A DNA stretch of 64,000 nt from the IMG/VR virus record IMGVR_UViG_3300017917_003379. One strand, 5' to 3'. A program made the position numbers and the translations under genes. Below, one piece after another: positions 34,134 through 60,485 of this stretch. Source of the DNA: a virus. Under the pieces are notes generated by a model. It saw nothing but the letters and a program-made list of their open reading frames with translations. It was not told where the DNA came from and ran no database searches. Positions within the stretch are counted from its first letter, which is position 1. Each line of letters begins with the position of its first letter.

Positions 34134-35891
34134 ATGGATATTCTCAATAAACAGTGGTGGAAACAAGTACTTCAACTAAACGAAATAGTAGATAATGATG
34201 TTGAAGATAAAATAATAAAAGGATTTTCATTATATAGATTTCCATCAGGGTTTGGTAGAGCTTACAAAACATCAAATGGTAAAGCATCTCCTTTTCTAGC
34301 TAAACAGATAAATAAATGGATTGAAAAAACATTCCCTGAAAGTAAAGTTAGAGTAGCGTATGAAAAAACGTATGCTACTATTAATATATTCAATCCTAAT
34401 GTTATTCATGAGATGTCTTCTATTCAAGAATCACCTCCTATTAATTTTGGAGATGACTCCCCATATCAAAATTATATTCTACAAAATCGCCATAAAATAG
34501 AACAAGCTGCTTATGCTTTTAATATTCCTATTAGTGATATGGAATATGCATTTAGTGGTGGTAATGAAGTAGTATTAAATGATGAAATGTGGAAAGAAAT
34601 GGAAAATACTAAGTCTTATAATATGAAGACATTAGAAGATGCTATTTCACACGCTTTAAAAATAGGTATTGATCCTAAACCCTATATTGATTATATTAAA
34701 CAGAAAAAAGATATACCCCTTCCTCTTGTATTACAATATTCTCAAGGGAAATATTATTTAGTTGGTGGTGAAATAGTATTATCTATTTATAGATCTTTAG
34801 GCATAATTCCTACTGTACTTTTAGCTACATTAAATTTACAAGATAAAACTTTATCTAAACCTATATTTGAAAATCAAAACAATACCGCAGAATTTAAAAA
34901 TAAACAGATAGATACTATTAAACATTTTTTAAAATATGCTGTTAAAGAATTAGATATAAAACAATTACCTAAAGGTTTAACATTATCGTATGATAATGAA
35001 AAAGCTAAAACTCACCATACATTTGGTACTTTTGATCCTAATTCTGATAAAATATGGTTATACGTTAAAAATAGAAATTTAGCTGATATTCTTCGTACAT
35101 TGGCTCATGAATTAGTTCATCGTAAACAAGCCGAAGAAGGTAGAATAGACATAAATAGTGGAGAAACTGGTAGTGAAATTGAAAATGAAGCCAATGCAAA
35201 AGCAGGAGTATTATTAAGAAATTTTGGTAAAAAACACGAAGAAATTTACGAAGCTAAAAATAGATTTGGAAATTATCTTTTCGGAGATAAAAAATCAGGT
35301 GTTAAAATAGGATGGTATAAAGATGAAATGGAAAAAGATACACCTGCTGAAAAAAAATTATTTGATTTAATAAAAAAATATGCTGATTCTGAACATAGTG
35401 TTTATTCAAAAATAAAATTAGACGATTTAGTCCCTTTATTTAAAATAATCAGAACACAATATCCTGAAATAGGAAAACCCAATCCTGACGAATATATCTA
35501 TAGAGGTACATCTATACCTAAAGAAAAATTAGATGAATTAATAAATAATGCTAAAAACATAGAACCTTATTCTCAAGGTATTATATTATTAAATCAAATG
35601 TATTCTTCAAGACGTCAAGTCCAATCCTGGAGTACAAAATATTACAATGCTGCTAGTTTCGCTGCGGGCACTGCAGAACGTAAAAAAGAAGCCGCTATAA
35701 TTATGAGAGCCAAATCAAGTGATGCTGATTTATATTTTAATCCGGATTTTATGAATAAATTAAGTTCACAAATTGAATATGAAACTTTTAATATTGTAAA
35801 TCCAATTCCTGTAGATATCATGGTGTTAGAAGAATATAAAGATGAATTTGAAGATATGGAAGCAGGGTACTTACATAATAAAGAACAATAA
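34134..35891 (+). CDS. Multidomain protein: ParB-like + zincin (HExxH) + ADP-ribosyltransferase-like
   Basis: PLPLVLQY..YYLVGG; TLAHELVHRKQ...E.EANA; YIYRG...QSWST...IEYE. Confidence 0.55.
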   Translation: MDILNKQWWKQVLQLNEIVDNDVEDKIIKGFSLYRFPSGFGRAYKTSNGKASPFLAKQINKWIEKTFPESKVRVAYEKTYATINIFNPNVIHEMSSIQESPPINFGDDSPYQNYILQNRHKIEQAAYAFNIPISDMEYAFSGGNEVVLNDEMWKEMENTKSYNMKTLEDAISHALKIGIDPKPYIDYIKQKKDIPLPLVLQYSQGKYYLVGGEIVLSIYRSLGIIPTVLLATLNLQDKTLSKPIFENQNNTAEFKNKQIDTIKHFLKYAVKELDIKQLPKGLTLSYDNEKAKTHHTFGTFDPNSDKIWLYVKNRNLADILRTLAHELVHRKQAEEGRIDINSGETGSEIENEANAKAGVLLRNFGKKHEEIYEAKNRFGNYLFGDKKSGVKIGWYKDEMEKDTPAEKKLFDLIKKYADSEHSVYSKIKLDDLVPLFKIIRTQYPEIGKPNPDEYIYRGTSIPKEKLDELINNAKNIEPYSQGIILLNQMYSSRRQVQSWSTKYYNAASFAAGTAERKKEAAIIMRAKSSDADLYFNPDFMNKLSSQIEYETFNIVNPIPVDIMVLEEYKDEFEDMEAGYLHNKEQ

Positions 35892-35909
35892 ATAAAATAA
35901 ATTAGGTTT

Positions 35910-36494
35910 ATGAGTGATAATATGTTAAAGTGCGAATTTCGCGGAAAAGATGTACAACGTATGCGTAATATCATTACTAAAGATTACAACGCAAAAACAA
36001 GTACACAAATAGGGTATACTAAAGAATATATTGAACATAAAGAAGGAGATATATGGGAAGAAAATAATAAAACATGGACTATTAAGAATGGTATTAAAAT
36101 GACCATTACTAAGTTAGATATAGTTAGAAAAGCATTAAATATGCCACTTACTTGTCCTACTTGTCATCAACCCATGAATAAAGGTAGATTAGATAAAGTA
36201 ATGTATTCTATCCATAAACAATGTTCTGATTGTGTTATTAAACATGAAACAGAATTAAAACGTCAAGGTAAATTTGAAGAATATCAACAAAATATCAATA
36301 AACAAAGTATATCATACCATATTAAAGAAATGGAAAATATATTGTTAGAATTGGCTTTAAATCAATCTAATGATTCCTTTGTGACTGAAGATGGTGATGT
36401 TGAATCGTGGAAAGGTAAAGGAATTGATTATAAAAAAATAACAGAAGACATCCAAGAATATATTCAAAAATTAAAAGATGTTTTGAATTCATAA
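35910..36494 (+). CDS. Zn-ribbon-containing conserved phage protein
   Basis: KEGDIWEE..KTWTIKNG; CPTC...CSDC. Confidence 0.65.
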   Translation: MSDNMLKCEFRGKDVQRMRNIITKDYNAKTSTQIGYTKEYIEHKEGDIWEENNKTWTIKNGIKMTITKLDIVRKALNMPLTCPTCHQPMNKGRLDKVMYSIHKQCSDCVIKHETELKRQGKFEEYQQNINKQSISYHIKEMENILLELALNQSNDSFVTEDGDVESWKGKGIDYKKITEDIQEYIQKLKDVLNS

Positions 36495-36545
36495 TATTTA
36501 TGGGCAATACCTATTTAAACCAATAAAAATAGTTTAGAATTGATT

Positions 36546-37166
36546 ATGCCCACAGAATTAACCGTTGCTATAGTATCATCTGTATTTACTGCTATTATAG
36601 GTCCTATTGCAGTACATTATTTTAAAGAAAAATTAAACAAAAAATCTAAAGATATATTAAAAGAAACCTTAGAAGAAAATACATTAATAATTAATAAATT
36701 AGAAGAAATTAAAAATATCCATAAAGCAGACAGAGTTTGGATAATGCAATTTCATAACGGAGGTAATTTTTACCCAACTGGAAAATCAATCCAGAAATTT
36801 AGCATGTGTTACGAATTAGTAGAATATGGAGTTAGTTCTATTCAACAAAATTTTCAAAATATACCTATTAGCTTATTTAGCAAATCTATAAATCATCTTT
36901 TAGAAGAAGACATAATTGCTATCCCTGATTTTAAGGATGAAACTATACCTACTTATGGGTTAAAATATGTTGCTGAAGAATATGGTTGTAAAAGTGCCTA
37001 TTTAGTTGCTATTAAATCTATAGATGGTAAGTATGTAGGAACATTAGGTATAGAATATACTAAACGTAAAACATCTCTTTCTCAAGAAGAAATAAATAAC
37101 CTATGGATTGAATCAACAGCAATAGGTGGGGTATTGATTTCTTCATTCAAAAACAAAACAATATGA
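36546..37166 (+). CDS. Single-TM GAF-domain protein, T4 holin T-like
   Basis: N-terminal TM, then ADRVWIMQFHNGG...VGTLGIEY GAF-type pattern. Confidence 0.5.
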   Translation: MPTELTVAIVSSVFTAIIGPIAVHYFKEKLNKKSKDILKETLEENTLIINKLEEIKNIHKADRVWIMQFHNGGNFYPTGKSIQKFSMCYELVEYGVSSIQQNFQNIPISLFSKSINHLLEEDIIAIPDFKDETIPTYGLKYVAEEYGCKSAYLVAIKSIDGKYVGTLGIEYTKRKTSLSQEEINNLWIESTAIGGVLISSFKNKTI

Positions 37167-37411
37167 TTAAGCTAATAGATATGCTAAAAGAACATGAAGA
37201 AGGAGAAGAATATCCTCCTTACATGTATTCATCAGTAGGATTTGGTTGTCATGTATGTGATTATTATTATACAAAAGATGATAAACATATGTGTCGAAAT
37301 GAACATTATCAAGAATTAATGGGTACTGATGAATTAATTAACCCCAAGACTAAAAAACCAATTAAAGATCCATCAAAATATTGTTCAAACTGGTTTGAAC
37401 CTAAAAAATAA
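37163..37411 (+). CDS. Tagged (family A) small Cys-containing protein
   Basis: MIKLIDMLKE leader; CHVC...C...C. Confidence 0.7.
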   Translation: MIKLIDMLKEHEEGEEYPPYMYSSVGFGCHVCDYYYTKDDKHMCRNEHYQELMGTDELINPKTKKPIKDPSKYCSNWFEPKK

Positions 37412-37415: not shown

Positions 37416-38051
37416 ATGAATAAATTAGATATCTATGAAGTTGAAGATTGTGGTTGTTTTGGCCCCAAATTAACTTTAAATGAAGGACAAGATAATATTA
37501 TGTTATCTGAAGGATTAAAATACCATATTCAAGAAGGTAGGATGCTTATACATAATATTTATCGCCCATTATCTAAATCCTATTTTGCTTTAGTACGTGA
37601 AGCACGTGATTTATATAATAAAGGATTATTATCTGTAACTGAGGATGATATGGAACTTTTAGAAAGCAATTTAGGTGAATTCGGTATATATAATGGTATT
37701 AAAGTTCCACTTGATTATGTATTTGATATTGATGAAGTTACCAACTATATTAATGAAGCTACTAAAGATAAAAAGAAAACACCCCCATTAGGCAAACCTA
37801 AACGTGGTGGATCTAAAAAATTCTATGTTTATGTTCGTAAACCAGGTGGAGGAATTAAAAAGGTATCATTTGGAATGGCAGGTGGGGGATTGCGTGCTAA
37901 ATTAAATAACCCAAAAGCACGTCAAGCCTTTGCAAAACGTCATAAATGTTCACAAGCAAAAGATAGAACAACTGCTCGTTATTGGAGTTGTAGACTTCCT
38001 CGTTATGCTAAACTATTAGGCTTCAAAACCAGCTTTAGTGGTTATTGGTAA
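37416..38051 (+). CDS. Conserved phage protein with basic C-terminal domain (DUF6321-like)
   Basis: KKFYVYVR...KKVSFG...AFAKRHKC...ARYWSCR; internal LNE/LSE/INE sites. Confidence 0.55.
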   Translation: MNKLDIYEVEDCGCFGPKLTLNEGQDNIMLSEGLKYHIQEGRMLIHNIYRPLSKSYFALVREARDLYNKGLLSVTEDDMELLESNLGEFGIYNGIKVPLDYVFDIDEVTNYINEATKDKKKTPPLGKPKRGGSKKFYVYVRKPGGGIKKVSFGMAGGGLRAKLNNPKARQAFAKRHKCSQAKDRTTARYWSCRLPRYAKLLGFKTSFSGYW

Positions 38052-38065
38052 TAAATCGAAAAATC

Positions 38066-38695
38066 ATGAAATACTACAACTTTTTCAAATTTCTAGAAGA
38101 TAAAGGAGAAAAGAAAATCCCTATCAAAGTAAAATTAATACAAAATCCAAACTACCAAATCACACAAGCTGACGCGACACCCGATTTGAATTTATACGAT
38201 ACTCCAATCACATCTCTTGGAAATTTAACTTCAGTTGGTGGCAGTTTGAATTTATACGATACTCCAATCACATCTCTTGGAAATTTAACTTCAGTTGATG
38301 GGAATTTGAATTTACAATATAGTAATGTCAAATCTCTTGGAAATTTAACTTCAGTTGGTGGAGATTTGAATTTATATGGTACTCAAATCGAATCTCTTGG
38401 AAATTTAACTTCGGTTGGTGGGAATTTGTATTTGATAGGAACTAATGTTGAATCTCTAGGAAATTTAACTTCGGTTGGTGGGAATTTGAATTTGGAAAAT
38501 ACTAATATAGAATCTCTTGGAAATTTAACTTCGGTTGGCGGGGATTTGTATTTAAATAATAGTCCAATAAAATCTTTTGGAAATTTAACTTCGGTCGGTG
38601 GATATTTGAGTTTATACAATACTCCCCTATCAAAAAAATACACTGAAGAGCAAATTCGATCAATGGTTGATGTTAAAGGTGAAATATATTTATAA
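38066..38695 (+). CDS. 20-aa LRR-like repeat protein
   Basis: About 7 units of LxLxxTxIxSLGNLTSVGGx; 60-bp tandem DNA repeat. Confidence 0.8.
   Translation: MKYYNFFKFLEDKGEKKIPIKVKLIQNPNYQITQADATPDLNLYDTPITSLGNLTSVGGSLNLYDTPITSLGNLTSVDGNLNLQYSNVKSLGNLTSVGGDLNLYGTQIESLGNLTSVGGNLYLIGTNVESLGNLTSVGGNLNLENTNIESLGNLTSVGGDLYLNNSPIKSFGNLTSVGGYLSLYNTPLSKKYTEEQIRSMVDVKGEIYL
38183..38622 (+). repeat. 60-bp coding tandem repeat
   Basis: atctcttggaaatttaacttc(a/g)gttggtgg core at 60-nt period. Confidence 0.9.
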
Positions 38696-38699: not shown

Positions 38700-39173
38700 A
38701 TGATTAAACTTTTAGATATATTAAAAGAAATTATTGCATTTTCTAATTGGAAAATGCCTTCTTTATCTCAACTTAAACAAGAATATAAAATAGAGCATGA
38801 GATGAAAGGTAATGATTTTTGGGAAAGTGAAGAAGATTTTTTAAATGCTGTTAAGAATGGTAAAATAGTTACCATTACTCCTTCTGAAGATCAAAACATA
38901 TATTATAGAAGTGGAACAGAATCTTATGAAGAACTTTTAAATTTAATTAAATCATATAGATCTTACCCTAAATATAGAAATGAAACTACATTACAATCTT
39001 TATATGATGGATTTAAAAACAATTCACCTATGGATTTACCCATAGTTATAAAATTCCCAGATAATACTAAACGAGTATTTTCAGGTAACACAAGAATGGA
39101 TGTGGCTTTTCAATTAGGTATTAATCCAAAAGTATTATTAGTTAAAAGCGAATCTTATGACCCATCCATATAA
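38700..39173 (+). CDS. Tagged (family A) ParB/Srx-like protein
   Basis: MIKLLDILKE leader; LPIVIK....RVFSGNTRM. Confidence 0.65.
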   Translation: MIKLLDILKEIIAFSNWKMPSLSQLKQEYKIEHEMKGNDFWESEEDFLNAVKNGKIVTITPSEDQNIYYRSGTESYEELLNLIKSYRSYPKYRNETTLQSLYDGFKNNSPMDLPIVIKFPDNTKRVFSGNTRMDVAFQLGINPKVLLVKSESYDPSI

Positions 39174-39829: not shown

Positions 39830-40075
39830 ATGAAAAAATCCGAATTAAAAAGAATCATCAAAGAAACCATATCAGACCTTACTCAAAATAATCTAAATGA
39901 ACAAAATGAAGGTGTTAGACAATATCTAAGACAACTTCAAGATTTTGAAGAAACATATGTTGATACTTTAGATGATTTAGAAAATTTAGCTACTGCTGTT
40001 GAATCTTTCCATAGAAGTTTAATTAATAGAATTAAACAAGAAAAAGGAAACGTATACGGAGACTGGGAAGCATAA
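39830..40075 (+). CDS. Tagged (family B) small protein
   Basis: MKKSELKRIIKE leader, then NLNE. Confidence 0.65.
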   Translation: MKKSELKRIIKETISDLTQNNLNEQNEGVRQYLRQLQDFEETYVDTLDDLENLATAVESFHRSLINRIKQEKGNVYGDWEA

Positions 40076-40368
40076 TGATCAAGTTAACAGACATATTACT
40101 TGAAATAATAAACGAAACAAGATACGAATCAAGTACTCTGAATGAAAAAAAAGAAACTCTTCGTACTTGGTTTAAACGTAAAGGTGCTCCTGGAAAAGTA
40201 GGTGGATGGGTAGATTGCAACACCTGCCGTAAGGTAGATGGTAAAACTAAATGTAAACCATGTGGTAGACAAAAAGGTGAAAAACGTTCTAAGTATCCTT
40301 CTTGCCGTCCCACTCCATCTCAATGTAAACAACCCGGTAAAGGTAAAAAATGGGGTAAAACAAAATAG
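40075..40368 (+). CDS. Tagged (family A) basic Cys-rich protein
   Basis: MIKLTDILLE leader; LRTWFK..GWVDC..PCGR..KYPSCRP. Confidence 0.65.
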   Translation: MIKLTDILLEIINETRYESSTLNEKKETLRTWFKRKGAPGKVGGWVDCNTCRKVDGKTKCKPCGRQKGEKRSKYPSCRPTPSQCKQPGKGKKWGKTK

Positions 40369-40410: not shown

Positions 40411-40995
40411 ATGAATAATTCTGCATTACGCTTATTTATAAGAAGTATTATAACTGAAGCTAAAGAAAAAAAGGTTGAAAAAGAACCTAAAAAAACTATA
40501 AAAAAAGAAGAAAAAGCTCCAAAAAGTAGTGGTAAATTAGTAGACCTTAAAAAAGAATTAGCTGCTTTAAAACAATATAAAGATGAGCTTCAAGTAGCTA
40601 AATTTGCAGAAAAAACTGCATCTACTGAGGTTGAATTTGCTGATTTAGCTAAATTTGCTAAAGAATTAGATGCGTTAAAAGCAAAAGGTGTTGCTTTAGA
40701 AAAACAAATTGATGAGAAAATTAAAGAACTTGAAACTCGCATTTCTGATGAAAAAAATAAAATCAAAGAAATGATGGGTCTTACCGCTCCTGAGAAAAAA
40801 GGAGCTAAAAAAATGATGGATGAAAAAAAAGACGAATTAGAAGAAGCTCGTTTTAAAAAAGGTACTGATGTAGGTAAACCTGGTAAAGGATTTGCTAAAA
40901 TAGCTAAATCAGCCGCTAAAAAATATGGTTCAAAAGAAGCTGGTCAAAAAGTAGCAGGTGCTGTATTAAAGAAAGTAGTAGCTAAAAACAAATAA
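40411..40995 (+). CDS. Lys/Glu-rich coiled-coil protein, possible prohead core/DNA-condensing protein
   Basis: MNNSALRLFIRSIITE leader; basic tail after ELEE. Confidence 0.55.
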   Translation: MNNSALRLFIRSIITEAKEKKVEKEPKKTIKKEEKAPKSSGKLVDLKKELAALKQYKDELQVAKFAEKTASTEVEFADLAKFAKELDALKAKGVALEKQIDEKIKELETRISDEKNKIKEMMGLTAPEKKGAKKMMDEKKDELEEARFKKGTDVGKPGKGFAKIAKSAAKKYGSKEAGQKVAGAVLKKVVAKNK

Positions 40996-40996: not shown

Positions 40997-41374
40997 ATGG
41001 AAAACAATGCTTTAATGGGCCAATTTGTATCTACATTACTTGCTGCTCGTACACAAGCCCATATATTTCATCTTCAAACACCCTCGTTTGCTGCTCATAA
41101 AGCATTAAATGAATTTTATGATGCTATTGTGGATTTAACAGATAGTATTGTTGAATCTTACCAAGGTAAATATGGTATTATTACTGGATACGGCAATGTT
41201 TCTTTACAAGAATACCAAAGTTGTGAAGGTATTATTATGTACTTTAACACTTTATGTATGTTTGTAGAAAAAAGTAGACAAATGTTAGCTCAAGACTCAT
41301 ATATTCAAAATCAAATTGATGAAGTTGTTGCATTGATCAACTCTACAATTTATAAACTACGCTTTTTAAAATGA
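40997..41374 (+). CDS. Ferritin/Dps-like protein (DUF5856-like)
   Basis: AHIFHLQT..FAAHKALNEFYD...ESYQGKYG. Confidence 0.75.
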   Translation: MENNALMGQFVSTLLAARTQAHIFHLQTPSFAAHKALNEFYDAIVDLTDSIVESYQGKYGIITGYGNVSLQEYQSCEGIIMYFNTLCMFVEKSRQMLAQDSYIQNQIDEVVALINSTIYKLRFLK

Positions 41375-41709
41375 TAAAATTACTTGATATTCTAGAAAAC
41401 CTAGATCCAGTAGGTAAAGAAGATGCTGATATTAATAACGATGGTAAAGTAAATAAAACAGATAAATATTTAGCTAATCGTCGTAAAGCAATAGCTGCTA
41501 ATCTTAAAGAAGGAGATCATGAAGTAGCAATGGCCGTTTCTAGCCTAGAATCAATTGCCAAAGCAATTGTTGAATTAAGACAAAAACTTGGAAATGTTGA
41601 ACGTAACATTCCAGGTTGGATTCAAGATCATATAGCAAAAGCAGAAAACTATATTGAGCAAGCTGCTCAAGGTTTTCATGAATTAAAACATATAGATGAA
41701 AATAAATAA
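41371..41709 (+). CDS. Tagged (family A) protein with EF-hand/dockerin-like loop
   Basis: MIKLLDILE leader; DADINNDGKVNKTD. Confidence 0.65.
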   Translation: MIKLLDILENLDPVGKEDADINNDGKVNKTDKYLANRRKAIAANLKEGDHEVAMAVSSLESIAKAIVELRQKLGNVERNIPGWIQDHIAKAENYIEQAAQGFHELKHIDENK

Positions 41710-41787: not shown

Positions 41788-42360
41788 ATGAGTAAAACAT
41801 TATTATTAGAAAAATATATTAAAGTTGCTGTTCGTAAAGCATTAAAAGAGCAAGAAGAACAACAACGTAAAGCAGAAAAAGCAATATATCTTGTATATCG
41901 TTTTCCTGGTTTGAAAAAAATAATGGAAGACTTAATGTCTCCTGCTTTTGGTCGTTATATTAATGATGTTGATATTGTTGCTCCTAAACCAACAACATTT
42001 AAAATTACCTTAATCAACAATCAAGATTTTACTGTTAAATACCTTGGTAAAGGTAAATTTAACATTAAAGTATCAGGCAAACAATACCATTCAGATAATT
42101 TAGGAGAAGCAGAACGTTGTTCTCAAGCTATAGCTGATTTATTAGAATTAAACTATTCAACAGCAGAAGGTAAAGAACAAACTAGCCCTACTCCAGGAGC
42201 AACTGAACCTGGTTCTACTTCTCCAACATCTTCAACAGAATTGGGTGCTGCTGAATTAGGTCCTGAATTAGCAGCAGCTGAAGAAACACCACCTCCTACA
42301 ACAGCAAGTACTCCTGAAGAAACACCCGCACCAGAAGAAGAAACACCAGCTGAAGCTTAA
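41788..42360 (+). CDS. Hypothetical protein with acidic Pro/Thr/Glu tail
   Basis: ORF track; leader YIKVAVRKALKE. Confidence 0.65.
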   Translation: MSKTLLLEKYIKVAVRKALKEQEEQQRKAEKAIYLVYRFPGLKKIMEDLMSPAFGRYINDVDIVAPKPTTFKITLINNQDFTVKYLGKGKFNIKVSGKQYHSDNLGEAERCSQAIADLLELNYSTAEGKEQTSPTPGATEPGSTSPTSSTELGAAELGPELAAAEETPPPTTASTPEETPAPEEETPAEA

Positions 42361-43426: not shown

Positions 43427-43813
43427 ATGGAATTTATTACTGAAGTAAAACGTTTACAAAAACTAGCAGGAATATTAACTGAACAAGAAAAACAACCAGA
43501 AGAAGAAATTTCTTCTGCTGATACTCCTGAAACTCCATCTGGTTCTATTACTAAGGCTGAAGCAAAACAGCTTATAAAAGGAACAAAAGGTAAATTCTTT
43601 ACTGTTACTTTCATTAAAAAAGACGGCACTACTCGTGTTATGAATGCCCGTTTAGGTGTAAAAGCATACCTTAAAGGAGGAGAACTTCCTTATGATCCTG
43701 AAGCAAAAGGATTAATACCTGTATTTGATATTCCTAAACGTGAATACAGAATGGTGAATTTAAATACTATTATTAAGTTAAAGATTGGTAATAACGAATA
43801 CGATGTAAAATGA
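43427..43813 (+). CDS. Tagged (family C) SH3/WYL-like protein
   Basis: MEFITEVKRLQKLAGILTE leader; FFTVTFIKKDGTTRVMNARLG. Confidence 0.6.
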   Translation: MEFITEVKRLQKLAGILTEQEKQPEEEISSADTPETPSGSITKAEAKQLIKGTKGKFFTVTFIKKDGTTRVMNARLGVKAYLKGGELPYDPEAKGLIPVFDIPKREYRMVNLNTIIKLKIGNNEYDVK

Positions 43814-43864
43814 TTAAACTAATCCACATAAATACGATGTAAAATGATTAAACTAACCCACATA
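43797..43864 (+). repeat. 34-bp tandem duplication spanning a tag start
   Basis: aatacgatgtaaaatgattaaactaa(t/c)ccacata x2. Confidence 0.9.
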
Positions 43865-45883
43865 TTAGAAAATATACTATTTGAATATAGTCAAGCTCAA
43901 ATTGACAAAACTATTAAAAGATGGGAAAATGAACCTAACTTTGATAAAAATGTCGCTTTAAATTTAATAAAAACATTTGATAATAAAAAAAGTGGATTAT
44001 CAAGTAAATTAGATTTAGTAGTATTACCTGATAAACTAAAACAAGGGAATAATTATCTTAATATAGATCTATATTCATATGAAGATATGAAACGATTAAT
44101 AAATTCTATCCCTGAAAATCCTGAAACTGTTAAAAAAACAGCTATTAATAGATTTGTAGAGTTATTTGGAATAAATAAACAAACTGCTCAATCATATGTT
44201 GCTCGTTTTTTATATAATAAAGATAAATTAAAATTAGCAGCAAAAGAAGGACTAGAAGATATAGGAGTAACTAAAGAAGAAGTATTAAATTTAATCCCTA
44301 AAAAACTTCAACGAAATGAAGCATTTTTAGATCCACGTAACTGGAATTGGATTTCATTTGAACAAATAACAGATGCTCTATTCCCTAGTCAAAAAACTTC
44401 AGAAGATAATATTAACTTAGCTACTGCAGAAGGTGATAAAGTGTATGATAAAGATGGAATAGAAATATATAAAGGAGATGATATTCAAAAATGTATATCT
44501 TATAATCCTGTTATAGAAAAAACAAAAAAGAAAAAATACGGGTGGTGTGTAACTCAAGTAGGAAATACTAATTATGATTTTTATAGATTTAAAAATCAAG
44601 CCCCTACTTTTTATTTTGTATTTGATAGAAACAAACCTTCTAGCCCCGAACATGCTCTTTTTGATGATGAATGGCATGCTTTTGTAATACAAGTAACTGC
44701 TGATAAGAAAACATATATAGTAACAGGAGCTAATAATAGAAGAGATATTGATACTGGAGATAAAGGATGGGAAGGTATAGCAAACATAGTACCTCCTGAT
44801 ACATGGAATAAAATTAAAAATTTAAAAGATTATTTTGTACCTGTACCCTTATCTGCTGTAGAAAGAGCAAGAAAATATGCTTCTGGGATGGATTTATCTT
44901 TAGATGAATTTAAAGAACTTTCTCAAGATGAAAAGATATTATATATACAAGGAAAAGCTTCTAAAAATCAAATATCTACTGATATTTTAAAAATCTTACC
45001 AAAATATAAAATATCATATCAGGGTAAAACTACAACATTAGCTAATATTGCTATAGATAGTGGACAAGAAATTCCTTATTCTGTATTGAAAGATAACGAA
45101 GCTTTAGCTAAAAGATATGCTATATTTAGATTTAGACATACTAATTATGGTAATTTACCTATTCCCCTTCCTTTTGTAAAATATTTAGACGAACCTGCTA
45201 AAGAAAAATATTTAAAAACATTCGATAATAATCTTACATTTGAATATATAGAGAAATATTTTGGAGAAAAATCAGCTCAAAAATATGTAAATGAACAAAT
45301 CAAAACTCTTAACTATCTCCCCCCAGGTGCTATAAAATATATTACAGATCCTAAAATAAAAGATTTATATTTATCTTATAGTAAATTATTCAAAAATTGG
45401 CAAAATTCGGCTAATACTAATATTGATGAAGAAAGATTAGAAAATTCAAAACAAATGCCTATACAGGAAATCGATCCTGTTCCTATAATGTATGATGATT
45501 GGAAAGAATTTTCTAATAAAGAAAAACAAATTATATATAATTTAGCAAAAACTGCAGATAACAATACGGAAGAATATTTAACAGTTAGTTATGCTGTACC
45601 CTTCTTTTTACAAGATGGTGAACAAAAATACGCTCTACTCCCAGAAGATGATACTTATGAAAATTGGGTAATAACCGATATGAATGGAAATATAATATCC
45701 GAATTTAAATCAATCGAATCTATATCATTAAAAAATAAACCTGTATATGGTGGTTACCCAGATTATAGTAATATAGAAAATGCTAAAAGGATATATAAAT
45801 TGTCTGATTTGCAGATAAATGGTAAACCTGTTTCTTTAAAAGAAATAAAACGTATATTAAAATTAGCAGGAATATTACGTTAA
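43844..45883 (+). CDS. 679-aa doubly tagged protein with central WC-motif domain
   Basis: N-terminal MIKLTHILENILFE; C-terminal LKEIKRILKLAGILR; YGWCVT...FYFVFD. Confidence 0.7.
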   Translation: MIKLTHILENILFEYSQAQIDKTIKRWENEPNFDKNVALNLIKTFDNKKSGLSSKLDLVVLPDKLKQGNNYLNIDLYSYEDMKRLINSIPENPETVKKTAINRFVELFGINKQTAQSYVARFLYNKDKLKLAAKEGLEDIGVTKEEVLNLIPKKLQRNEAFLDPRNWNWISFEQITDALFPSQKTSEDNINLATAEGDKVYDKDGIEIYKGDDIQKCISYNPVIEKTKKKKYGWCVTQVGNTNYDFYRFKNQAPTFYFVFDRNKPSSPEHALFDDEWHAFVIQVTADKKTYIVTGANNRRDIDTGDKGWEGIANIVPPDTWNKIKNLKDYFVPVPLSAVERARKYASGMDLSLDEFKELSQDEKILYIQGKASKNQISTDILKILPKYKISYQGKTTTLANIAIDSGQEIPYSVLKDNEALAKRYAIFRFRHTNYGNLPIPLPFVKYLDEPAKEKYLKTFDNNLTFEYIEKYFGEKSAQKYVNEQIKTLNYLPPGAIKYITDPKIKDLYLSYSKLFKNWQNSANTNIDEERLENSKQMPIQEIDPVPIMYDDWKEFSNKEKQIIYNLAKTADNNTEEYLTVSYAVPFFLQDGEQKYALLPEDDTYENWVITDMNGNIISEFKSIESISLKNKPVYGGYPDYSNIENAKRIYKLSDLQINGKPVSLKEIKRILKLAGILR

Positions 45884-46853: not shown

Positions 46854-47363
46854 ATGGAACAACACATTAATGAAATTCGTAGAATGCAACAATTAGCAGG
46901 TATTAATGAAATTAAAGTATCTCAACCGACAAATTCAAAAAATAATAATATTAGTTTATATAATTTTTTAAATAGACATATTGAAGAATTTGCTAAAGAT
47001 CAACTTCAAACAAATGAAAATTTATCAATATTTGTTTTTAATGAATATTATAATTGGGATACTAATCCTGCAAATTTAGAAGATGAAAATTATCCATACG
47101 ATACAGAATTTAAAGATATGCCTCAACCTATTCAACAAGATATGATAAATTATTTAGTAGAAAAAGGATTAGAATATTATGGGGAATGGAAATCAGAAGA
47201 AGATAACGATAAAACTTACGGAATAGAATGGAATTTAGATTACGGTATGGTATATAATTGGACAAATAAAGCCTACCCAGGACCTGCAGAAGATTTGCAT
47301 CATGGTTGGATTGAACAAAAGTTTAAAGGAATAATATTTTATGTTTTATATTTTAATGTATAG
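46854..47363 (+). CDS. Tagged (family C) acidic protein
   Basis: MEQHINEIRRMQQLAGINE leader. Confidence 0.7.
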   Translation: MEQHINEIRRMQQLAGINEIKVSQPTNSKNNNISLYNFLNRHIEEFAKDQLQTNENLSIFVFNEYYNWDTNPANLEDENYPYDTEFKDMPQPIQQDMINYLVEKGLEYYGEWKSEEDNDKTYGIEWNLDYGMVYNWTNKAYPGPAEDLHHGWIEQKFKGIIFYVLYFNV

Positions 47364-49292: not shown

Positions 49293-49923
49293 AATCTATA
49301 TTTACTTCTTAGAAAAGAATAATAATGTCTTTTATGTTGGTAAAACAAAAAATCCTAAACGTAGAGAATATGATTGGAAAAGAGAATTTGGAGAAGACAT
49401 TAATTTTAATTTAGTAGATGAAATAGAAGATAATAAAATAATATGGAAATTTTGGGAAAATTATTGGATTCAACAATTTAAACAGTGGGGTTTTAATTTA
49501 ATTAACCAAAACGAAGGTGGTGGTGGTTTAGATAAACATTCTGATGAAACTATTGAAAAAATTAGATCTAAAAAAATAGGTGTAAAACAAAATAGAACTA
49601 AAATTAGAAAAGATAAAGGATTAAAACATAATAAACAACAAGGTATTAAGATTGGTCGTCCTGAAGGATTTAGATACAGTGAAGAACTTAAATTACATTT
49701 AAGTAATAAAATGAAAGGACGTTCAAAACATACTGAAGAAGGAAAATATAAATTTGTAGATAATAAGGTTTATTCTTTTATTAATATAGATACTAATGAA
49801 GAATTTAATGGTATTAGATATGATTTTCAAAAGAAATATAATTTAAAATATAAAGGAATATATAATTTAATAACAAGTAAAGCAAAAACATATAAAAGAT
49901 GGAAAATAAAAGAATTAAATTAA
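49267..49923 (+). mobile_element. Free-standing GIY-YIG homing endonuclease
   Basis: IYIYFL....FYVGKT...R...E..WI...LINQNEGG; HSDETIEKIR NUMOD3-like motif. Confidence 0.8.
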
Positions 49924-50315
49924 TAGATTTATTAGAAGAAACAATAAATTGGGATAGAGCATCTGAATTTTATGATACTGGCAATTATGTGACTATAAAT
50001 AAAGGTTATGGTATTATAGAGTTTGGTCTAGAAACACTATCAGATGGAGAAGAAGCATTATTCATTAATGATATTTCTATTAAACCGGAATTTCAAGGAA
50101 AAGGATATGGTTCTAAAATTATTCAAAGTGCTATAGAATATGCTAAAGAGCAAGGAATACCAGTAGCATTAAGAGCATCCGTAGGAGGGCATTATAATAC
50201 AAATAGTAATATGTCACAAGAAGATTTGATTAAATTTTATAAAAAATTTGGATTTGAAAATAGACCAGATCTATCAAATTTTGGGCACGATGATATTTTT
50301 ATGGTTAAATTTTAA
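49899..50315 (+). CDS. GNAT acetyltransferase with family-A-like leader
   Basis: ISIKPEFQGKGYGSKII...FYKKFGFE; IKLIDLLEE near the N terminus. Confidence 0.85.
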   Translation: MENKRIKLIDLLEETINWDRASEFYDTGNYVTINKGYGIIEFGLETLSDGEEALFINDISIKPEFQGKGYGSKIIQSAIEYAKEQGIPVALRASVGGHYNTNSNMSQEDLIKFYKKFGFENRPDLSNFGHDDIFMVKF

Positions 50316-51148: not shown

Positions 51149-51640
51149 ATGAAAAAATCAGAACTAAGACAAATAATCAAGGAAGAAATTACCAAAGTAT
51201 TAAATGAATTTGAAGATTTATCTATTAAAAATAATTATCTAGACAAAAATTTTTATGACCCTATAACAAAAGAATACTCAGAAGATGTAGTAGTGGATAG
51301 TAATAAAATATTTAAAGATTTATTAAAAACCAAAGTATATTATAAATCAAAATTACCATTATATCAAAACAATAAACCATTAACTGACTCTCAAATAGAC
51401 TCACTAATTGATACATTTGCTGCTAATGAAAGAGATATCATGATTTCTGACATACCTGATATAGATAAAGTAAAATGGATAAATAAATGGAAAAGGGTAG
51501 ATCTAGATGATTTAACTGATAATTTTATAAGTTTTGTAGAGGGTATATCTGAAAATTGGGAAGAATGGGAATTCCATGATGTTAATCAAACACGATATTC
51601 TGATAATTATCCATCAGAAAATAAATGGAACCAACTTTAA
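51149..51640 (+). CDS. Tagged (family B) acidic protein
   Basis: MKKSELRQIIKEEITKVLNE leader. Confidence 0.7.
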   Translation: MKKSELRQIIKEEITKVLNEFEDLSIKNNYLDKNFYDPITKEYSEDVVVDSNKIFKDLLKTKVYYKSKLPLYQNNKPLTDSQIDSLIDTFAANERDIMISDIPDIDKVKWINKWKRVDLDDLTDNFISFVEGISENWEEWEFHDVNQTRYSDNYPSENKWNQL

Positions 51641-51663: not shown

Positions 51664-52620
51664 ATGAAAAAATCAGAACTAAGACAAATAATTAGAGAAG
51701 AATTACAAAAACTAGCTGAAACACCTCAATATGAAAAACAACCTGTAGATGAAGGTTGGAAAGAAAATGCTATGGCTTTAGCATTAACTGCTGCTAGTAT
51801 GATAGGAGGGGGTAAAAAAGCAAAAGGACAAGATATCCTACAAAAATCTCCCGTTGCTGCTGCTACTGTTAAACAAACACAAGATACATTATCTGTTAAT
51901 TTTAATGATAATTTTAAAAGCGGTAGATATACTCTTAGTGCTGAATCATCAAAAGATATAGTAGAAAAATTAAGAGCTATAGGCAACTTTATTAGAAATA
52001 ACCCAAATAATAATATTAAAATAAGTATCATTTCAAGTGAATCTAAAGTTCCTAATTATGATAAAGAACCTTCATCTTCTACTTATAATTCTCGCTTAAA
52101 CACAGGTGAATTAGCTAGTAAAAGATCAGCTTCAATGAAATATACCATTCAAACTTTACTCAAAGATTTGGAAAAAAATGGTGTAGATACTAGTAAAGTA
52201 ACTTTTGAACCTGCTCAAAATTTAGTTGGAGGACCAGAATGGAAACAAGGAATGTCACCTTCTGATTCTCAATTTGTCAAACATCAGTTTGTTAAAGTTG
52301 TTATATCTTTATCTGATGAAAACAAAGTTGACTATTCTGCTTTTGCTAAAGAAGGAGAAAGTTATTTTGACGCTAACGACCATTTAACTGCTATAGTATT
52401 TTACAGAACAAGAGAAGCATATGATAGATCTCAATCTGGCCTAGTAGATACAGGCCGTGAAGATGTTTTAGTAAGATTTGTAGATAAAAATGGAAAATTT
52501 ATAGGAGAAGATTATTTATTGGATAATAGCTGGTGGAATACTAATAAAAATATTAGCAGTGAAATGACTTCTGAATTTAAAGAAAAAATTATTAAGAACG
52601 GAAAACGAGTTAAACCATAA
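51664..52620 (+). CDS. Tagged (family B) protein with internal signal-like segment and OmpA-C-like domain
   Basis: MKKSELRQIIREE...VDE|GWKENAMALALTAASMIGG; FKSGRYTL...IRNNP...LASKRSASM...QFVKVVI. Confidence 0.55.
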   Translation: MKKSELRQIIREELQKLAETPQYEKQPVDEGWKENAMALALTAASMIGGGKKAKGQDILQKSPVAAATVKQTQDTLSVNFNDNFKSGRYTLSAESSKDIVEKLRAIGNFIRNNPNNNIKISIISSESKVPNYDKEPSSSTYNSRLNTGELASKRSASMKYTIQTLLKDLEKNGVDTSKVTFEPAQNLVGGPEWKQGMSPSDSQFVKHQFVKVVISLSDENKVDYSAFAKEGESYFDANDHLTAIVFYRTREAYDRSQSGLVDTGREDVLVRFVDKNGKFIGEDYLLDNSWWNTNKNISSEMTSEFKEKIIKNGKRVKP

Positions 52621-56020: not shown

Positions 56021-56072
56021 AATAGGCAAAGTTATCTTGTTAAATTTATCTAAACAAAAATAAATAGGTTAT

Positions 56073-57257
56073 ATGGCAAAAAAACAACCACAGCAAGTTT
56101 CATTAAATGTTAAAGAAACAAAAACATTTCTTAAACATATTATCAACAACAATCGTTTTTTACAACAAAACAACAAACCCCCAGTAGCAGTAGAAGTAGT
56201 AGGCGATTCAGGAATTGGTAAAACATCTACTATTATTCAATTAGCAAATGAATTAGATTTACATTTTGTTAAATTGAATTTAGCGCAGATTGAAGAATTA
56301 GGTGATTTAGTTGGCTTTCCAATCCGTCAATTTGAAGTATGTAAAGATACTGATTGTATTTGGATTGATGAACATGCTGTAGAAGAGTATATAAAATTAG
56401 GTTATACGTTTACTGGATTAAATCGAATGAGTTATTGTCCACCTGAATGGATTAGTGGTAAAACAACAGGCGGAATATTACTACTGGATGATTGGAATCG
56501 TGCTGATGTTAGATTTATTCAAGCTGTAATGGAACTAATTGATCGTCAACAATATATTAGTTGGACATTACCTAAAGATTGGCATATTATTTTAACATCA
56601 AATCCTGATAATGGAGAATATTTAGTTAATAGTATTGATAATGCTCAAAAAACACGTTTTATTAGTGTCAATTTAAAATTTGATATTGATTGTTGGGGAG
56701 AATGGGCTGAAAATAATCAAATTGATAATAGATGTATTAATTTCTTACTAAAACATCCAGAATTAGTTACTACAAATATTAATTCACGAAGTATAACTAC
56801 ATTTTTTAATTCAATATCATCATTAGATTCATTTGAAACATCATTACCATTAATTCAAATGATTGGTGAAGGTAGTGTAGGTTCGGAATTTACGACATTG
56901 TTCACAATGTTTATCAATAATAAATTAGATAAAATTATTTCACCTAAGACAATATTAACTCATGAAAGTGATGAATATATTTTAAATACTTTAAAAGGTA
57001 TTATTGGTAAAGATGAAAAGTATAGAGCTGATTTAGCATCAATTATATCAACTCGTATTATTAATTATAGTATATTTTATGCTAAAGAAAATAAAATTGA
57101 AAAACAATTTATTGATAGATTAGCATTACTAATTAATGAAAATCTATTCACAGTAGATTTAAAATATAATATAGTAAAATCAATTTATAATGGTGATCAA
57201 TCATCATTTAAACAACTCATGTTGAATAAAACATTATTAACATTTTTAACTAAATAA
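56073..57257 (+). CDS. MoxR-like AAA+ ATPase
   Basis: GDSGIGKT; GDLVGFP; LLLDDWNRA; TSNP; AQKTRF. Confidence 0.85.
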   Translation: MAKKQPQQVSLNVKETKTFLKHIINNNRFLQQNNKPPVAVEVVGDSGIGKTSTIIQLANELDLHFVKLNLAQIEELGDLVGFPIRQFEVCKDTDCIWIDEHAVEEYIKLGYTFTGLNRMSYCPPEWISGKTTGGILLLDDWNRADVRFIQAVMELIDRQQYISWTLPKDWHIILTSNPDNGEYLVNSIDNAQKTRFISVNLKFDIDCWGEWAENNQIDNRCINFLLKHPELVTTNINSRSITTFFNSISSLDSFETSLPLIQMIGEGSVGSEFTTLFTMFINNKLDKIISPKTILTHESDEYILNTLKGIIGKDEKYRADLASIISTRIINYSIFYAKENKIEKQFIDRLALLINENLFTVDLKYNIVKSIYNGDQSSFKQLMLNKTLLTFLTK

Positions 57258-57258
57258 T

Positions 57259-58269
57259 ATGCCTACATATCAAAGATTACGATCATTATTAGATTATAAT
57301 GGAAAAATTGCACCTTATATATATGGAAATAATATACATAAACGTATAAGTATTATTACTAAAGAACATGAGGATAAATACAATAAACTTTATAATAACA
57401 ATAAAGACAATAAGATAGAAAATAATACAACATTATGTATGTCGCCGTTAAGTAATTTACCTAATTACAAACTTAAATCATATATAACAGAAAATAAACT
57501 TAATATTAAAACAGTCAGACGTACATCCAAACCTAATATTTTAGTAATAAATGATTCTTTAATTAAAGAATATTATTTTAATTCTCATTACTATAACACA
57601 GGCCTATTTTATATAGTTCCAGTTGAATTTTTAAAAACAATACAAACTAAAAACCATAATGAAAAATTAATAGCTGATTTTTATTATATAAACGATAACA
57701 TTTTAGATGTTTTTAAAACTAAATATCCAAATTATTATAATGAATTAATACAATTTGAAAAAATTACAGGTAAAATAATAGATATTGAATGGGGTAATAA
57801 AAAAGCATATGAATGTTTTGATTTATTTATAAGTCTACTTGACGAAAATTTACCCTATAAAATAGTATTTGATCATAGTATCAATAACGATATCAATAAA
57901 GATTTAGTAATAGATGATGATATGTTTATAAATTTAATAAACATGCTGAAAAGTTCAGATAAAGACAATCATAATTTAGCTCGTGAAATCGTAGCTAATT
58001 GTGAATTAGAATTATCTAAACCATATATTTTATTTCTATTATGGAAATATGAAGAGTTTAAAAAAACAAATAATAATAAAAATTTTAAATTTTGTTTAGA
58101 TGCACTTAAACCATATAAAGAAATATATTATAATAGAATGTTAGATAATTTTCTAGCAAAAATAATAAATAAACACCCCGAATATTCACAAACTATATTT
58201 AATTGTTTACGGTTATATATAAATAACGAAAATAATAAAGATATTATTAAAGGAATAACTATTTCTTGA
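57259..58269 (+). CDS. Hypothetical protein, third gene of the vWA/MoxR locus
   Basis: ORF track; abuts the ATPase gene. Confidence 0.65.
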   Translation: MPTYQRLRSLLDYNGKIAPYIYGNNIHKRISIITKEHEDKYNKLYNNNKDNKIENNTTLCMSPLSNLPNYKLKSYITENKLNIKTVRRTSKPNILVINDSLIKEYYFNSHYYNTGLFYIVPVEFLKTIQTKNHNEKLIADFYYINDNILDVFKTKYPNYYNELIQFEKITGKIIDIEWGNKKAYECFDLFISLLDENLPYKIVFDHSINNDINKDLVIDDDMFINLINMLKSSDKDNHNLAREIVANCELELSKPYILFLLWKYEEFKKTNNNKNFKFCLDALKPYKEIYYNRMLDNFLAKIINKHPEYSQTIFNCLRLYINNENNKDIIKGITIS

Positions 58270-58301
58270 TATTTATTGTCAAATACAATAAAATACTAAA
58301 C

Positions 58302-58775
58302 ATGAAAAAAACTGAATTATTATCTTTAATAAGAGAAGAACTTAAATTAGAGATGGCTGCTATTGCATCTGGATTAAAATTAGCCGATAATTGGAAAGAA
58401 TTATGGGAGACTGTACCTGAATCTATTAAATTATCAACACGATATAAGCGTATAATTGATTTTTTAGAAGAAAACGGAACTGGAACTCTTAAAGATATTG
58501 CTATAGAAAAATTTAATTCAACCGACACAGCAGTATGTAACCAATTAGTAAAAAGATTAAAAGAACTAGGTATAGTAGAAAGTACAGGATATGTTAGAGA
58601 ACCTAAATATAAAGAAAAAACTACTACTCCTGGAGCATTTGGTCGTCCTAAACTAACAGATGAAAATGTTAAAATGTTAGGTTTAAATATAGTTAGAAAG
58701 TTTAGTAAAGGTTTAACTGATTTTACGGATGAAGAAAAAGAGTTAATACAAAATATGTATAATTCTATTAAATAA
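58302..58775 (+). CDS. Tagged (family B) winged-helix protein
   Basis: MKKTELLSLIREELKLE|MA; TLKDIA...NQLVKRLKELGIVE; GRPK. Confidence 0.65.
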   Translation: MKKTELLSLIREELKLEMAAIASGLKLADNWKELWETVPESIKLSTRYKRIIDFLEENGTGTLKDIAIEKFNSTDTAVCNQLVKRLKELGIVESTGYVREPKYKEKTTTPGAFGRPKLTDENVKMLGLNIVRKFSKGLTDFTDEEKELIQNMYNSIK

Positions 58776-59242
58776 TGGCTAAATATAAAAAAATAGTTCT
58801 TTTAAGTTGTGTTGCAACTAAATTACCTCATGCTGCTCCGGCTGAAGAACTATATAATTCTCCTTTATTTAAAAAATCATTAGAATATGCTAAATCATTA
58901 AATCCAGATGATATAGTAATATTATCTGCTAAACATTATGTTTTACCGTTACGGAAAGTTATTAAACCTTATGATAAAACATTATTGAATATGCCTAGTG
59001 AAGAAATACAAGAATGGGCAGTACAGGTATTAAAAATATTAGCAGATAAATATAATTTAGAAAAAGATCATTTTATAATATTAGCAGGAGATAAATACAG
59101 AAAATATATAACTCCTCAAATAACACATTGGAGTGCTCCGCTAAAAGGATTAAGAATTGGGCAACAACTATCCTGGTATTCTAAAAAAATTGCTAAATTA
59201 GTAAAAGAAGGCTTAACCAAATTATTAAATTTATTTAAATGA
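58775..59242 (+). CDS. DUF6884-like protein
   Basis: LLSCVATK...AEELYNSPLFKK...ILSAKH...PYD..L...GLRIGQQ. Confidence 0.65.
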   Translation: MAKYKKIVLLSCVATKLPHAAPAEELYNSPLFKKSLEYAKSLNPDDIVILSAKHYVLPLRKVIKPYDKTLLNMPSEEIQEWAVQVLKILADKYNLEKDHFIILAGDKYRKYITPQITHWSAPLKGLRIGQQLSWYSKKIAKLVKEGLTKLLNLFK

Positions 59243-59481
59243 AAAAAATAGCTAAATTAATGGAAATGTATAAAGAAGATGCATACCATTATGATGATTT
59301 TAATGATAATCAAATATCAAAAACTTTAAATAAATTAAATGAATCTATTTCAATTTTAGAAGAACATACAGTAAAATCATACGCCCAAACTATTAATGAA
59401 TTTAAAAATTCATTACAGAGTAATGAAGAAAAAGAAATTATGGATGATTTTATACAATATTGTAAATATTATAACAAATAA
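59239..59481 (+). CDS. Hypothetical protein
   Basis: ORF track; several L/IxE sites. Confidence 0.6.
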   Translation: MKKIAKLMEMYKEDAYHYDDFNDNQISKTLNKLNESISILEEHTVKSYAQTINEFKNSLQSNEEKEIMDDFIQYCKYYNK

Positions 59482-59486
59482 TAAAA

Positions 59487-60485
59487 ATGAAAGTTAAACA
59501 ACTACGTGAACTAATTCGTGAAGCAATCCATGAAACATTAAAAGAAGCTGAAATTTCTCCACAAGAAAAAGCAGCTAAAGATGCTGAAATAAATTCCATA
59601 AATAAACAAATTCAAGCTTTACAAGCTAAAAAATCTGATCTTTCTTCAGGACGTGCATCTGTAGTATCTGAAACTGGATTAAAAGAAATGGCTCGTACAC
59701 CCATTAAATATAAATTATCTGATAATTATCAAGATAAAGTTTCTCAATTACCTTATGCTGGCTCTGAAAAAAGAATGAAATGGATAAATGGTATTATTGA
59801 TTACATTAGTCAAGAAGGATCAACAGATATTACATCAGTAGCTAAAAATAAATTTAACGTTCCTCAACCTCGTATAGCAGATTATGCTAGAGATATGATT
59901 CGTTTAGGTATTCTTGAACCAGAAACCTCAGGAGTTGTACCACAATTTATGCAATCTAACGATAAAGAAAAAACAACAGATGATTCAGAATCATCTACAT
60001 TAGATATGGGAAATTTATCAAAATATTTCTCACCAGTTTCTAATGATGATAATGGAAATGAAGAAGATTTTAATACTGAAGAAGAACCTACAATAGGTGA
60101 TATAGATAATAAACCTGTATCTACTTCTAGTATGTCTGATGAAGACTATAATGCATGGGATAAGTATTATGACTTAAAAACTAAACTAAATGGTGTTAAA
60201 TCAGATTTGAATAAAATAACTCGTAGTAAAAAAAGAGGTAGTGTTGCTGGTGATATTAAAGATAAACCATCTACTGAAGAACAACGCTTACGTGATTTGA
60301 AAAAATCCTTAGAAGATAGAATCAATACTTTAGTACAAAATTCTGATTATTTAAAGAAAAAAACCGGACAAGAAACAACACCCACTCCTGAAATAGAAGA
60401 TATTGAAGATGATGAAACAATAGATGAATCTTTCGACTCATATCAACTTAGAAAAATGCAATACTACGCTGGTATTAAAAAATAA
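59487..60485 (+). CDS. Doubly tagged winged-helix protein with acidic linker
   Basis: MKVKQLRELIREAIHE; GLKE|MA then wHTH; C-terminal IDE...LRKMQYYAGIKK. Confidence 0.65.
   Translation: MKVKQLRELIREAIHETLKEAEISPQEKAAKDAEINSINKQIQALQAKKSDLSSGRASVVSETGLKEMARTPIKYKLSDNYQDKVSQLPYAGSEKRMKWINGIIDYISQEGSTDITSVAKNKFNVPQPRIADYARDMIRLGILEPETSGVVPQFMQSNDKEKTTDDSESSTLDMGNLSKYFSPVSNDDNGNEEDFNTEEEPTIGDIDNKPVSTSSMSDEDYNAWDKYYDLKTKLNGVKSDLNKITRSKKRGSVAGDIKDKPSTEEQRLRDLKKSLEDRINTLVQNSDYLKKKTGQETTPTPEIEDIEDDETIDESFDSYQLRKMQYYAGIKK

Follow-up and report, generated by a model that had tools for sequence, protein, structure and literature searches.

Shared terminal peptides as probable prohead-loading tags in a T4-like phage of Flavobacteria

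Why would about 20 to 28 otherwise unrelated proteins of a single phage genome carry the same few short peptides at their ends? This question is raised by a 64,000-nucleotide stretch of viral DNA (IMG/VR record IMGVR_UViG_3300017917_003379; hereafter the window), which forms the first 64 kb of one 155,189-bp contig with 29.6% G+C and nearly all genes on one strand. Judged by its sequence, the contig is from a T4-like phage of Flavobacteria with genes for a gp20 portal, a gp21-type protease and a gp23 capsid protein. Its closest isolate is the Flavobacterium phage vB_FspM_immuto (immuto), whose capsid protein is 58% identical, and a megablast search of positions 54000-64000 against phage isolates returned no match. 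An initial annotation described three Glu-terminated families of terminal peptides (A, B and C) as a capsid-addressing system. One of these peptides, we found, reproduces the end of the head scaffold, and the peptides (tags) therefore most likely load the proteins that bear them (cargoes) into the capsid, as the T4 signal does. Coordinates are those of the window unless marked as genome coordinates (window = genome + 2).

Terminal peptides and the T4-type head

Each peptide was present at the coordinate at which it had been annotated. When the N-terminal 18 residues of the full set of 218 plus-strand open reading frames (ORFs) were clustered blind to any labels, 23 pairs scored at least 37, compared with 1-5 for random internal segments, and families A, C and B emerged as the three largest clusters. 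Hidden Markov models (HMMs) trained solely on sequences from other metagenomes recovered 8-9 A, 3-4 B and 7 C tags in this genome. All matches with E < 0.01 lay at ORF starts, the sole terminal exception being the scaffold C-terminus, matched by the C-tag profile at E 0.017; the proteins at 43844, 49899 and 59487 stayed below significance with these profiles.

A strict family A pattern matched eight times in the six frames of the whole 155-kb genome, every time at an ORF start (8/8), and unrelated proteins thus share a 10-residue N-terminal peptide. In two members (41371 and 43844) the peptide reads MIKLxxILEN with Glu at position 9, the variant at 49899 has five additional N-terminal residues, and three members lie beyond the window (genome 79015, 106252 and 117803). 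The family C core pattern gave ten matches: seven N-terminal (five within the window, plus genome 70254 and 70673), two at the extreme C-terminus and one doubtful. With the scaffold, three proteins carry C-terminal copies, the others being those at 43844 and 59487. For family B, the strict members (MKKSEL..II.EE) were upheld by both the external profile and blind clustering and most likely carry a leader of the same kind, amphipathic and about 20 residues long, whereas the looser members annotated at 17976, 40411 and 41788 received no statistical support. The idea of exactly three codes did not hold, because relatives carry additional leader families. Two such leaders, (M)ENxFDLKKFLVENKLT..N..LL.E and ..DKILNEWSFRC.DGI.D.N, were seen, with examples in immuto (L027) at 103806, 117631, 118632 and 125241. 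These fourth and fifth families are absent from the present genome, indicating that the tag repertoire differs between phages. N-termini of immuto that we read as tagged-protein starts include MKKSELVKLIKEE, MKKSQLRQIIKE and ...RRMQKLAGIITE.

The capsid signal of phage T4 is textbook knowledge. According to a 2022 review (PMC9026906), the capsid targeting sequence (CTS) is the first 10 residues of IPIII, in which targeting depends on residues 4 and 7 and processing on residues 8 and 10; gp21 cleaves after L/I-x-E, and Alt is processed at both ends. The T4 record gives the leaders MKTYQEFIAE (IPII/III), MELITELFDE (Alt) and MAKINELLRE (gp24). Family A has the layout M-I-K-L4-x-D-I7-L8-x-E10, positions 4, 7 and 8 being hydrophobic (I or M at position 7) and Glu occupying position 10, or position 9 in two members. 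The annotated likeness to the T4 sequence is thereby borne out in its functional layout, and family A is most likely the direct counterpart of the CTS. Comparison of the tagged cargoes with T4 IPI-III and Alt revealed no homology. Profile matches to gp20, gp23 and Peptidase_S77 identify a T4-type head with a gp21-family prohead protease, the N-terminus of which retains the QLLIE stretch of T4 gp21. Among 23 aligned capsid proteins, the site homologous to LTE/A of T4 gp23 (the slash marking the cut) reads L-[VIL]-x-E with an invariant Glu, and the [ILV]-x-E that closes the tags appears to be the same motif as this inferred maturation site.

The initial annotation had proposed a check of whether the scaffold ends in RMQxLAGI; the scaffold of this phage ends in ARMQKLANIK. 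This protein, assigned on its position, its acidity, 19 [IL]xE sites and an LTESQK.KV stretch common with T4 gp22, has homologues in tag-bearing contigs, and in 38/38 of them R-[MWF]-x-x-L-A-[GN]-[ILM] falls within the last ~10 residues. Their phages have capsid proteins down to 35% identity with this one, and the immuto scaffold ends with the same motif (RWQKLAGIIK). Tag C is therefore the scaffold's own conserved C-terminal motif. Family C most likely reproduces the conserved helix at the end of the gp22-like scaffold, a helix that, by analogy, may be the part docking on the inner capsid shell or core. The C-terminal motif on the proteins at 43844 (679 aa) and 59487 is retained in orthologues. 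The scaffold combines the C motif with a B-like N-terminus; for family B as a mimic of scaffold contacts, as had been proposed, we found weak similarity only.

The tags are widespread. A C-tag profile searched against 1.84 billion representatives (E <=0.001) matched 1073 clusters at the 50% identity level. Among the best 150 of these, the motif started within the first 15 residues in 134, and their 126 C-tagged cargoes of at least 40 residues fell into 101 BLAST clusters. Degenerate DNA patterns for A and B, searched in IMG/VR, each hit at least 120 loci, with at least 150 matches for A and at least 97 for B; an upstream in-frame ATG was lacking in 143/150 and 87/97, respectively, among the matches listed. 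Positions 13-20 of the B matches, which lie outside the search pattern, form a conserved amphipathic helix with an L-x-E end in about half, and similarity stops afterwards. In five large relatives, the strict A and C patterns occurred on the coding strand only, and reversed-pattern controls gave 0. The commonest neighbour families of tagged genes, two mixed clusters set aside, are mostly head genes (terminase, portal, post-portal protein, protease, scaffold); those two clusters, the largest, were considered as a conserved partner enzyme and rejected as single-linkage mixes of shuffled modular proteins. Searches against isolates were sparse in result, tblastn of the tag consensus peptides giving one B match at E 7 and no C match, and a conserved marine B-tagged protein giving none. 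A full-text literature search with the motif strings found no paper.

The sequence ATATTTAT, annotated as a late motif, was found at most 40 nt upstream of 11 of the ~28 tagged genes and before many structural genes. Small genes that look early also have it upstream, which leaves the label 'late' unsupported. In several genes (38686 and 17964; genome 106240 and 117791) the motif ends 4-6 nt before the ATG, a gap too short for a normal promoter and leader, and hence these transcripts may lack a leader, or the motif may serve some other purpose.

Cargoes and the exchange of tags

As annotated, the cargoes are unrelated: an all-versus-all BLAST of the tag-stripped proteins gave no significant similarity. 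Pfam and PHROGs searches recognised a GNAT acetyltransferase (49899), an SH3-like WYL_2 domain (43427) and a weak dockerin/EF-hand-like calcium loop (41371) and nothing else, and the annotated ParB-like, wHTH and OmpA-like assignments could not be reproduced. Many of the cargoes are small acidic proteins that lack known domains. The 679-aa protein at 43844 is conserved across the clade, and in its AlphaFold2 (AF2) model the body is confidently folded while both ends are low-confidence helices outside that fold, with a predicted local distance difference test score (pLDDT) below 50 for residues 1-12 and of ~52-65 for the C-terminal helix 665-674. In the model of the 285-aa protein at 45949, residues 1-19 are mostly below 50 and the body is again confidently folded. 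Fold searches with these two models gave no PDB match at E <=0.001, and a protein-atlas search gave weak leads only, to helical-repeat proteins.

The tags are modular and interchangeable, as the initial annotation had claimed, in that one cargo occurs in tagged and untagged copies and orthologues carry different leaders. The cargo of the 47970 gene is 58% identical (E 3e-24) to a complete but untagged 77-aa gene at 11018-11251. A 111-bp block with 95% DNA identity is shared by 11114-11224, in a region of small genes with low G+C, and 48147-48257 within gene 47970, and this block points to recent exchange between both copies. The leader varies among orthologues of the 45949 protein: some have an A tag, others a C tag (EIRRLQILAGILKE) or a fourth leader (DKILNEWSFRC...), and in others there is almost no leader. 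The C-terminal motif of the 679-aa protein lies internally in its longer homologues, where ITE and an additional domain come after it.

The relative L017 has adjacent paralogues with Imm5-like modules, one A-tagged and the other C-tagged. An internal C tag in L017 is a clean 21-residue insertion flanked by LNE/L, and the module borders read LNE/LGIN. At L017:5962-8680, the two adjacent genes hold two to three Imm5-like immunity-protein modules each, with LNE/LGIN joints. Because the modules are joined in this way, one with an internal C tag, the genes look like ones for polyproteins cut by a protease. We also considered E-[IV]-K-[IV]-x-x-P as a universal junction linker and rejected it, as it is mostly a feature of one C subfamily.

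Loading into the prohead and competing explanations

We consider it probable that the three peptides are prohead-loading address tags (propeptides) of a T4-type head. A tagged protein would co-assemble with the scaffolding core; after core assembly, the gp21-family protease would cut past the [ILV]-x-E at the end of each N-terminal tag, releasing the cargo within the head. Some of the cargo proteins would probably be delivered into the next host with the DNA, by analogy with the T4 internal proteins. Of the overall interpretation in the initial annotation, the head genes, the layout of family A, the scaffold end and the modularity are supported by comparison, and the B mimicry, the three codes, the late link and several cargo labels are weakly supported or unsupported.

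Several points weigh against loading into the prohead. We infer binding, cleavage, virion retention and injection by analogy, in this phage and its relatives alike, and our search found no virion proteome of this phage or of the cultured relative immuto. The comparison of the scaffold with the T4 gp22 profile was weak (probability 17%). An [ILV]-x-E ending at residue 7-26, present in 28/28 tagged proteins versus 62/190 others, speaks for the loading tags, but this enrichment is partly non-independent because the tag definitions partly include the motif, and chance alone would place so short a motif about once in every 66 residues. Family B has fuzzy edges and is weakly delimited: the 59487 protein and the loose B members fail the external profile, and helices resembling B are found as well on a baseplate-module protein and on terminases of relatives. 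Since the 43844, 49899 and 59487 proteins and the looser B members are not significant, we treat them as resemblances only. The late-promoter link is weak, the supposed promoter being non-specific, and two A-tagged genes lie among replication genes. Finally, the 'effector arsenal' of the initial annotation is a guess, because the cargoes are nearly without recognisable function.

Tagged proteins could instead enter the prohead core as accessories of the core or the scaffold, in the manner of T4 gp67 and gp68, and be degraded or expelled at maturation. Such a role would suit the several tagged genes inside the head module (genome 66367, 67203, 70254 and 70673), the scaffold's own pairing of a B-like N-terminus with the C motif, and the many small, acidic cargoes without domains. 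We nevertheless find it unlikely, given the enzyme- or binder-like cargoes (GNAT here, Imm5-type immunity domains and NT5C in relatives) and the fact that most tagged genes are variable among relatives rather than core. Moreover, one cargo is also found untagged among small genes distant from the head module, implying that it has a function outside head assembly. It is quite unlikely that the shared termini are leaders for another partner unrelated to the head, such as a Clp degron, a chaperonin client signal or a handle for a modifying enzyme. Although degrons are typically short terminal peptides and the genome encodes two ClpP-like proteins, together with GroEL/GroES-looking ORFs recognised by eye only, phage ClpP was found in 1/5 large tag-bearing relatives, compared with the head protease (Peptidase_S77) in 4/4 large A-tag contigs searched. 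No modifying enzyme recurs beside the tagged genes, the neighbours of which are mostly head genes once the mixed clusters are put aside. This explanation would also leave unaccounted for both the identity of tag C with the scaffold's conserved C-terminus and the position-by-position match of tag A to the T4 signal.

A further explanation holds that the shared gene starts are DNA recombination joints, cassette borders with a promoter and start region in a hyperplastic region, without any function of the peptide. The region is indeed mosaic, with a homing-endonuclease-like insertion, and DNA identity exists among the four closest C tags (77-84% over 72-117 bp, extending slightly upstream of the ATG) and between two B tags (90% over 50 bp). 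Family A speaks otherwise, as its copies differ in synonymous codons and have unrelated upstream DNA, a pattern that indicates selection on the peptide and not on the DNA. The tag peptides are also conserved in phages that share only 35-80% capsid-protein identity with this one, the motif occurs C-terminally and as an in-frame internal insertion of 21 residues, and conservation ends at the Glu, all of which makes recombination joints highly improbable.

If the peptides are prohead-loading tags, a wider proposal can be formulated, which we regard as tentative and somewhat doubtful. Across a large aquatic T4-like clade, interchangeable address peptides, one of them derived from the scaffold's shell-docking helix and used at either end, would load a variable head arsenal made up of at least 10% of the genes. 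The protease would free cargo at tag junctions, including those of multi-module polyproteins; Imm5 and enzyme cargoes would be injected as first-wave counter-defence, and more than 1000 public cargo families would belong to the system.

Comparison with known systems indicates which parts may be new. As described in PMC9026906 and PMC3012670, the T4 CTS (on IPI-III, with short propeptides of Alt and gp24, removed by gp21) is, like family A, an N-terminal peptide of ~10 residues on unrelated proteins. Both have hydrophobic positions 4, 7 and 8, a Glu at position 10 and the L/I-x-E motif, and both occur in a phage with gp20, gp21 and gp23; the processing of Alt at both ends parallels the two-tag proteins here. 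The present case departs from the five T4 proteins named there in having ~20-28 tagged genes, in a system known from sequence alone, and at least three tag classes, with more in relatives. One class copies the scaffold C-terminus and is also proposed as an uncleaved C-terminal tag. Relatives have polyprotein-like chains with internal tags, and the cargoes here are not homologous to those of T4.

Resemblance to a scaffold also has a precedent, as the 80alpha scaffold protein (SP) and SaPI1 CpmB are rivals for a single capsid-protein site (PMC5644958). There, as proposed for tag C, a second protein could reach a capsid site by resembling the capsid-binding part of the scaffold. CpmB, however, is a satellite's rival scaffold that changes capsid size, whereas the scaffold copies here sit on the phage's own unrelated cargoes, and binding of tag C to the capsid is a proposal by analogy. 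Encapsulin cargo peptides (PMC10960027, PMC8229669) are likewise short, conserved terminal peptides, which guide diverse cargo into an HK97-fold shell and are transferable from one cargo to another. Encapsulins are compartments of cells that contain no DNA and involve neither a scaffold nor a maturation protease, and their peptides remain uncleaved and show no sequence similarity to the tags; this phage has a T4-type capsid together with a portal, a protease and a terminase, so the encapsulin likeness is one of analogy only. In the giant phages phiKZ, 201phi2-1 and SPN3US, according to the consulted passages of PMC9026906 and PMC7411985, many head-internal propeptides are removed after Glu by a gp21-related protease and a large protein cargo is ejected, much as proposed here. 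Those phages differ in their S/A-x-E motif and in capsid lineage and size, and these passages do not describe short leader families shared by unrelated cargoes.

The 2022 review already suggests that the T4 signal may serve T4-like phages generally for loading varied proteins (PMC9026906). What appears to be new here is the existence of several interchangeable tag classes, a scaffold-tail class that can sit at either protein end, the occurrence of tags inside polyprotein-like chains, and the scale per genome and across metagenomes. If the proposal is true, a simple sequence rule would name virion-delivered proteins across a clade of uncultured phages, proteins that are otherwise invisible in metagenomes and are prime anti-defence candidates. 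On mechanism, a T4 head review goes no further than stating that the signal directs proteins to the scaffolding core; the scaffold-tail copy would give a concrete, testable physical answer for targeting to T4-type capsids. Portable tags would also have practical use for loading foreign proteins into capsids, and the cultured relative immuto makes a test feasible.

Feature coordinates and neighbouring genes

Table 1. Tagged genes, the untagged paralogue and related genes of the contig (window coordinates unless marked genome; genome positions lie beyond the window except where a window position is also given)
Feature	Coordinates	Strand	Support or remark
Untagged 77-aa paralogue of the 47970 cargo	11018..11251	+	
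Loose B-like N-terminus, baseplate module	17976..18329	+	unsupported as tag; E 0.8 or worse
Family A, 82 aa, tag MIKLIDMLKE (37163-37192)	37163..37411	+	external profile weak, E 0.45
Family A, 157 aa, tag MIKLLDILKE	38700..39173	+	regex and external profile; true start probably this ATG rather than an upstream TTG
Family A, 132 aa	39417..39815	+	weak DUF5872 match from residue 13, past the tag; tagged orthologues found in IMG/VR
Family B, 81 aa, MKKSELKRIIKE...	39830..40075	+	external profile E 9e-7
Family A, 97 aa, tag MIKLTDILLE	40075..40368	+	regex and external profile
Loose B-like N-terminus	40411..40995	+	without statistical support
Family A, 112 aa, tag MIKLLDILE (Glu at 9)	41371..41709	+	weak Ca-loop/dockerin-like cargo
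Loose B-like N-terminus	41788..42360	+	without statistical support
Family C, 128 aa, tag ...VKRLQKLAGILTE	43427..43813	+	SH3-like WYL_2 cargo from about residue 41
Two-tag protein, 679 aa: N-terminal A-type MIKLTHILE, C-terminal C-type KRILKLAGILR (45848-45880)	43844..45883	+	
Family A, 285 aa	45949..46806	+	regex and external profile
Family C, 169 aa, INEIRRMQQLAGINE then IKVSQP	46854..47363	+	
Family C, 103 aa	47970..48281	+	cargo residues 38-103 homologous to the untagged 11018-11251 gene
Family C, 103 aa	48319..48630	+	regex and external profile
Variant A tag MENKR-IKLIDLLEE on GNAT acetyltransferase	49899..50315	+	
Family B, 163 aa, 20-residue leader closing with VLNE	51149..51640	+	E 6e-12
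Family B, 318 aa counted from this ATG, leader closing with LAE	51664..52620	+	E 1e-10
Family C, 116 aa	53994..54344	+	regex and external profile
Family B, 157 aa, MKKTELLSLIREE	58302..58775	+	weak versus external profile
332-aa protein: B-like N-terminus, C-terminal C-type RKMQYYAGIKK (60450-60482)	59487..60485	+	orthologue in a relative ends in KRKLQFYAGIIK
Terminase large subunit	61981..63555 (genome 61979)	+	begins the T4-type head module
Portal	genome 63584		Portal_T4 E 3e-67
Prohead protease	genome 68826-69440		Peptidase_S77 E 3e-30; 32% identical to T4 gp21
C-tagged genes in head module	genome 70254 and 70673		
Scaffold-like protein, 359 aa, very acidic	genome 71424-72503		gp22 scaffold position, between protease and capsid gene
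Major capsid protein	genome 72541-74181		Gp23 E 5e-79
Two ClpP-like proteins	genome 111258-111872 and 145143-145685		Pfam-confirmed
GroES/GroEL-looking ORF pair	genome 119799-121807		by eye only

Beyond the features of Table 1, a gene for a 436-aa FAD/NAD-type oxidoreductase-like protein, whole in a relative (L089:5789-7099), is split here into ORFs of 174 and 259 aa (48768-51106) by an insertion of ~1 kb that contains a GIY-YIG-like ORF (49258-49923) and the adjoining tagged GNAT gene at 49899. An Rfam search of the split gene identified no intron. In the head module, the C-tagged protein at genome 70254-70670 has a lipoprotein-like stretch (..LLTATILSTVLASC..) deep inside, downstream of several [IL]xE sites. 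Small paralogous gene arrays occupy positions 1-8200, with MORN-like YWEGYY repeats and a family starting MTIAQQLKIKEFPFEI, and share extensive repeats at the DNA level. The ORF at 38045-38695 (216 aa) contains tandem 60-bp repeats, ~80% identical, at 38183-38625, and its protein thus consists in part of repeated 20-residue units.

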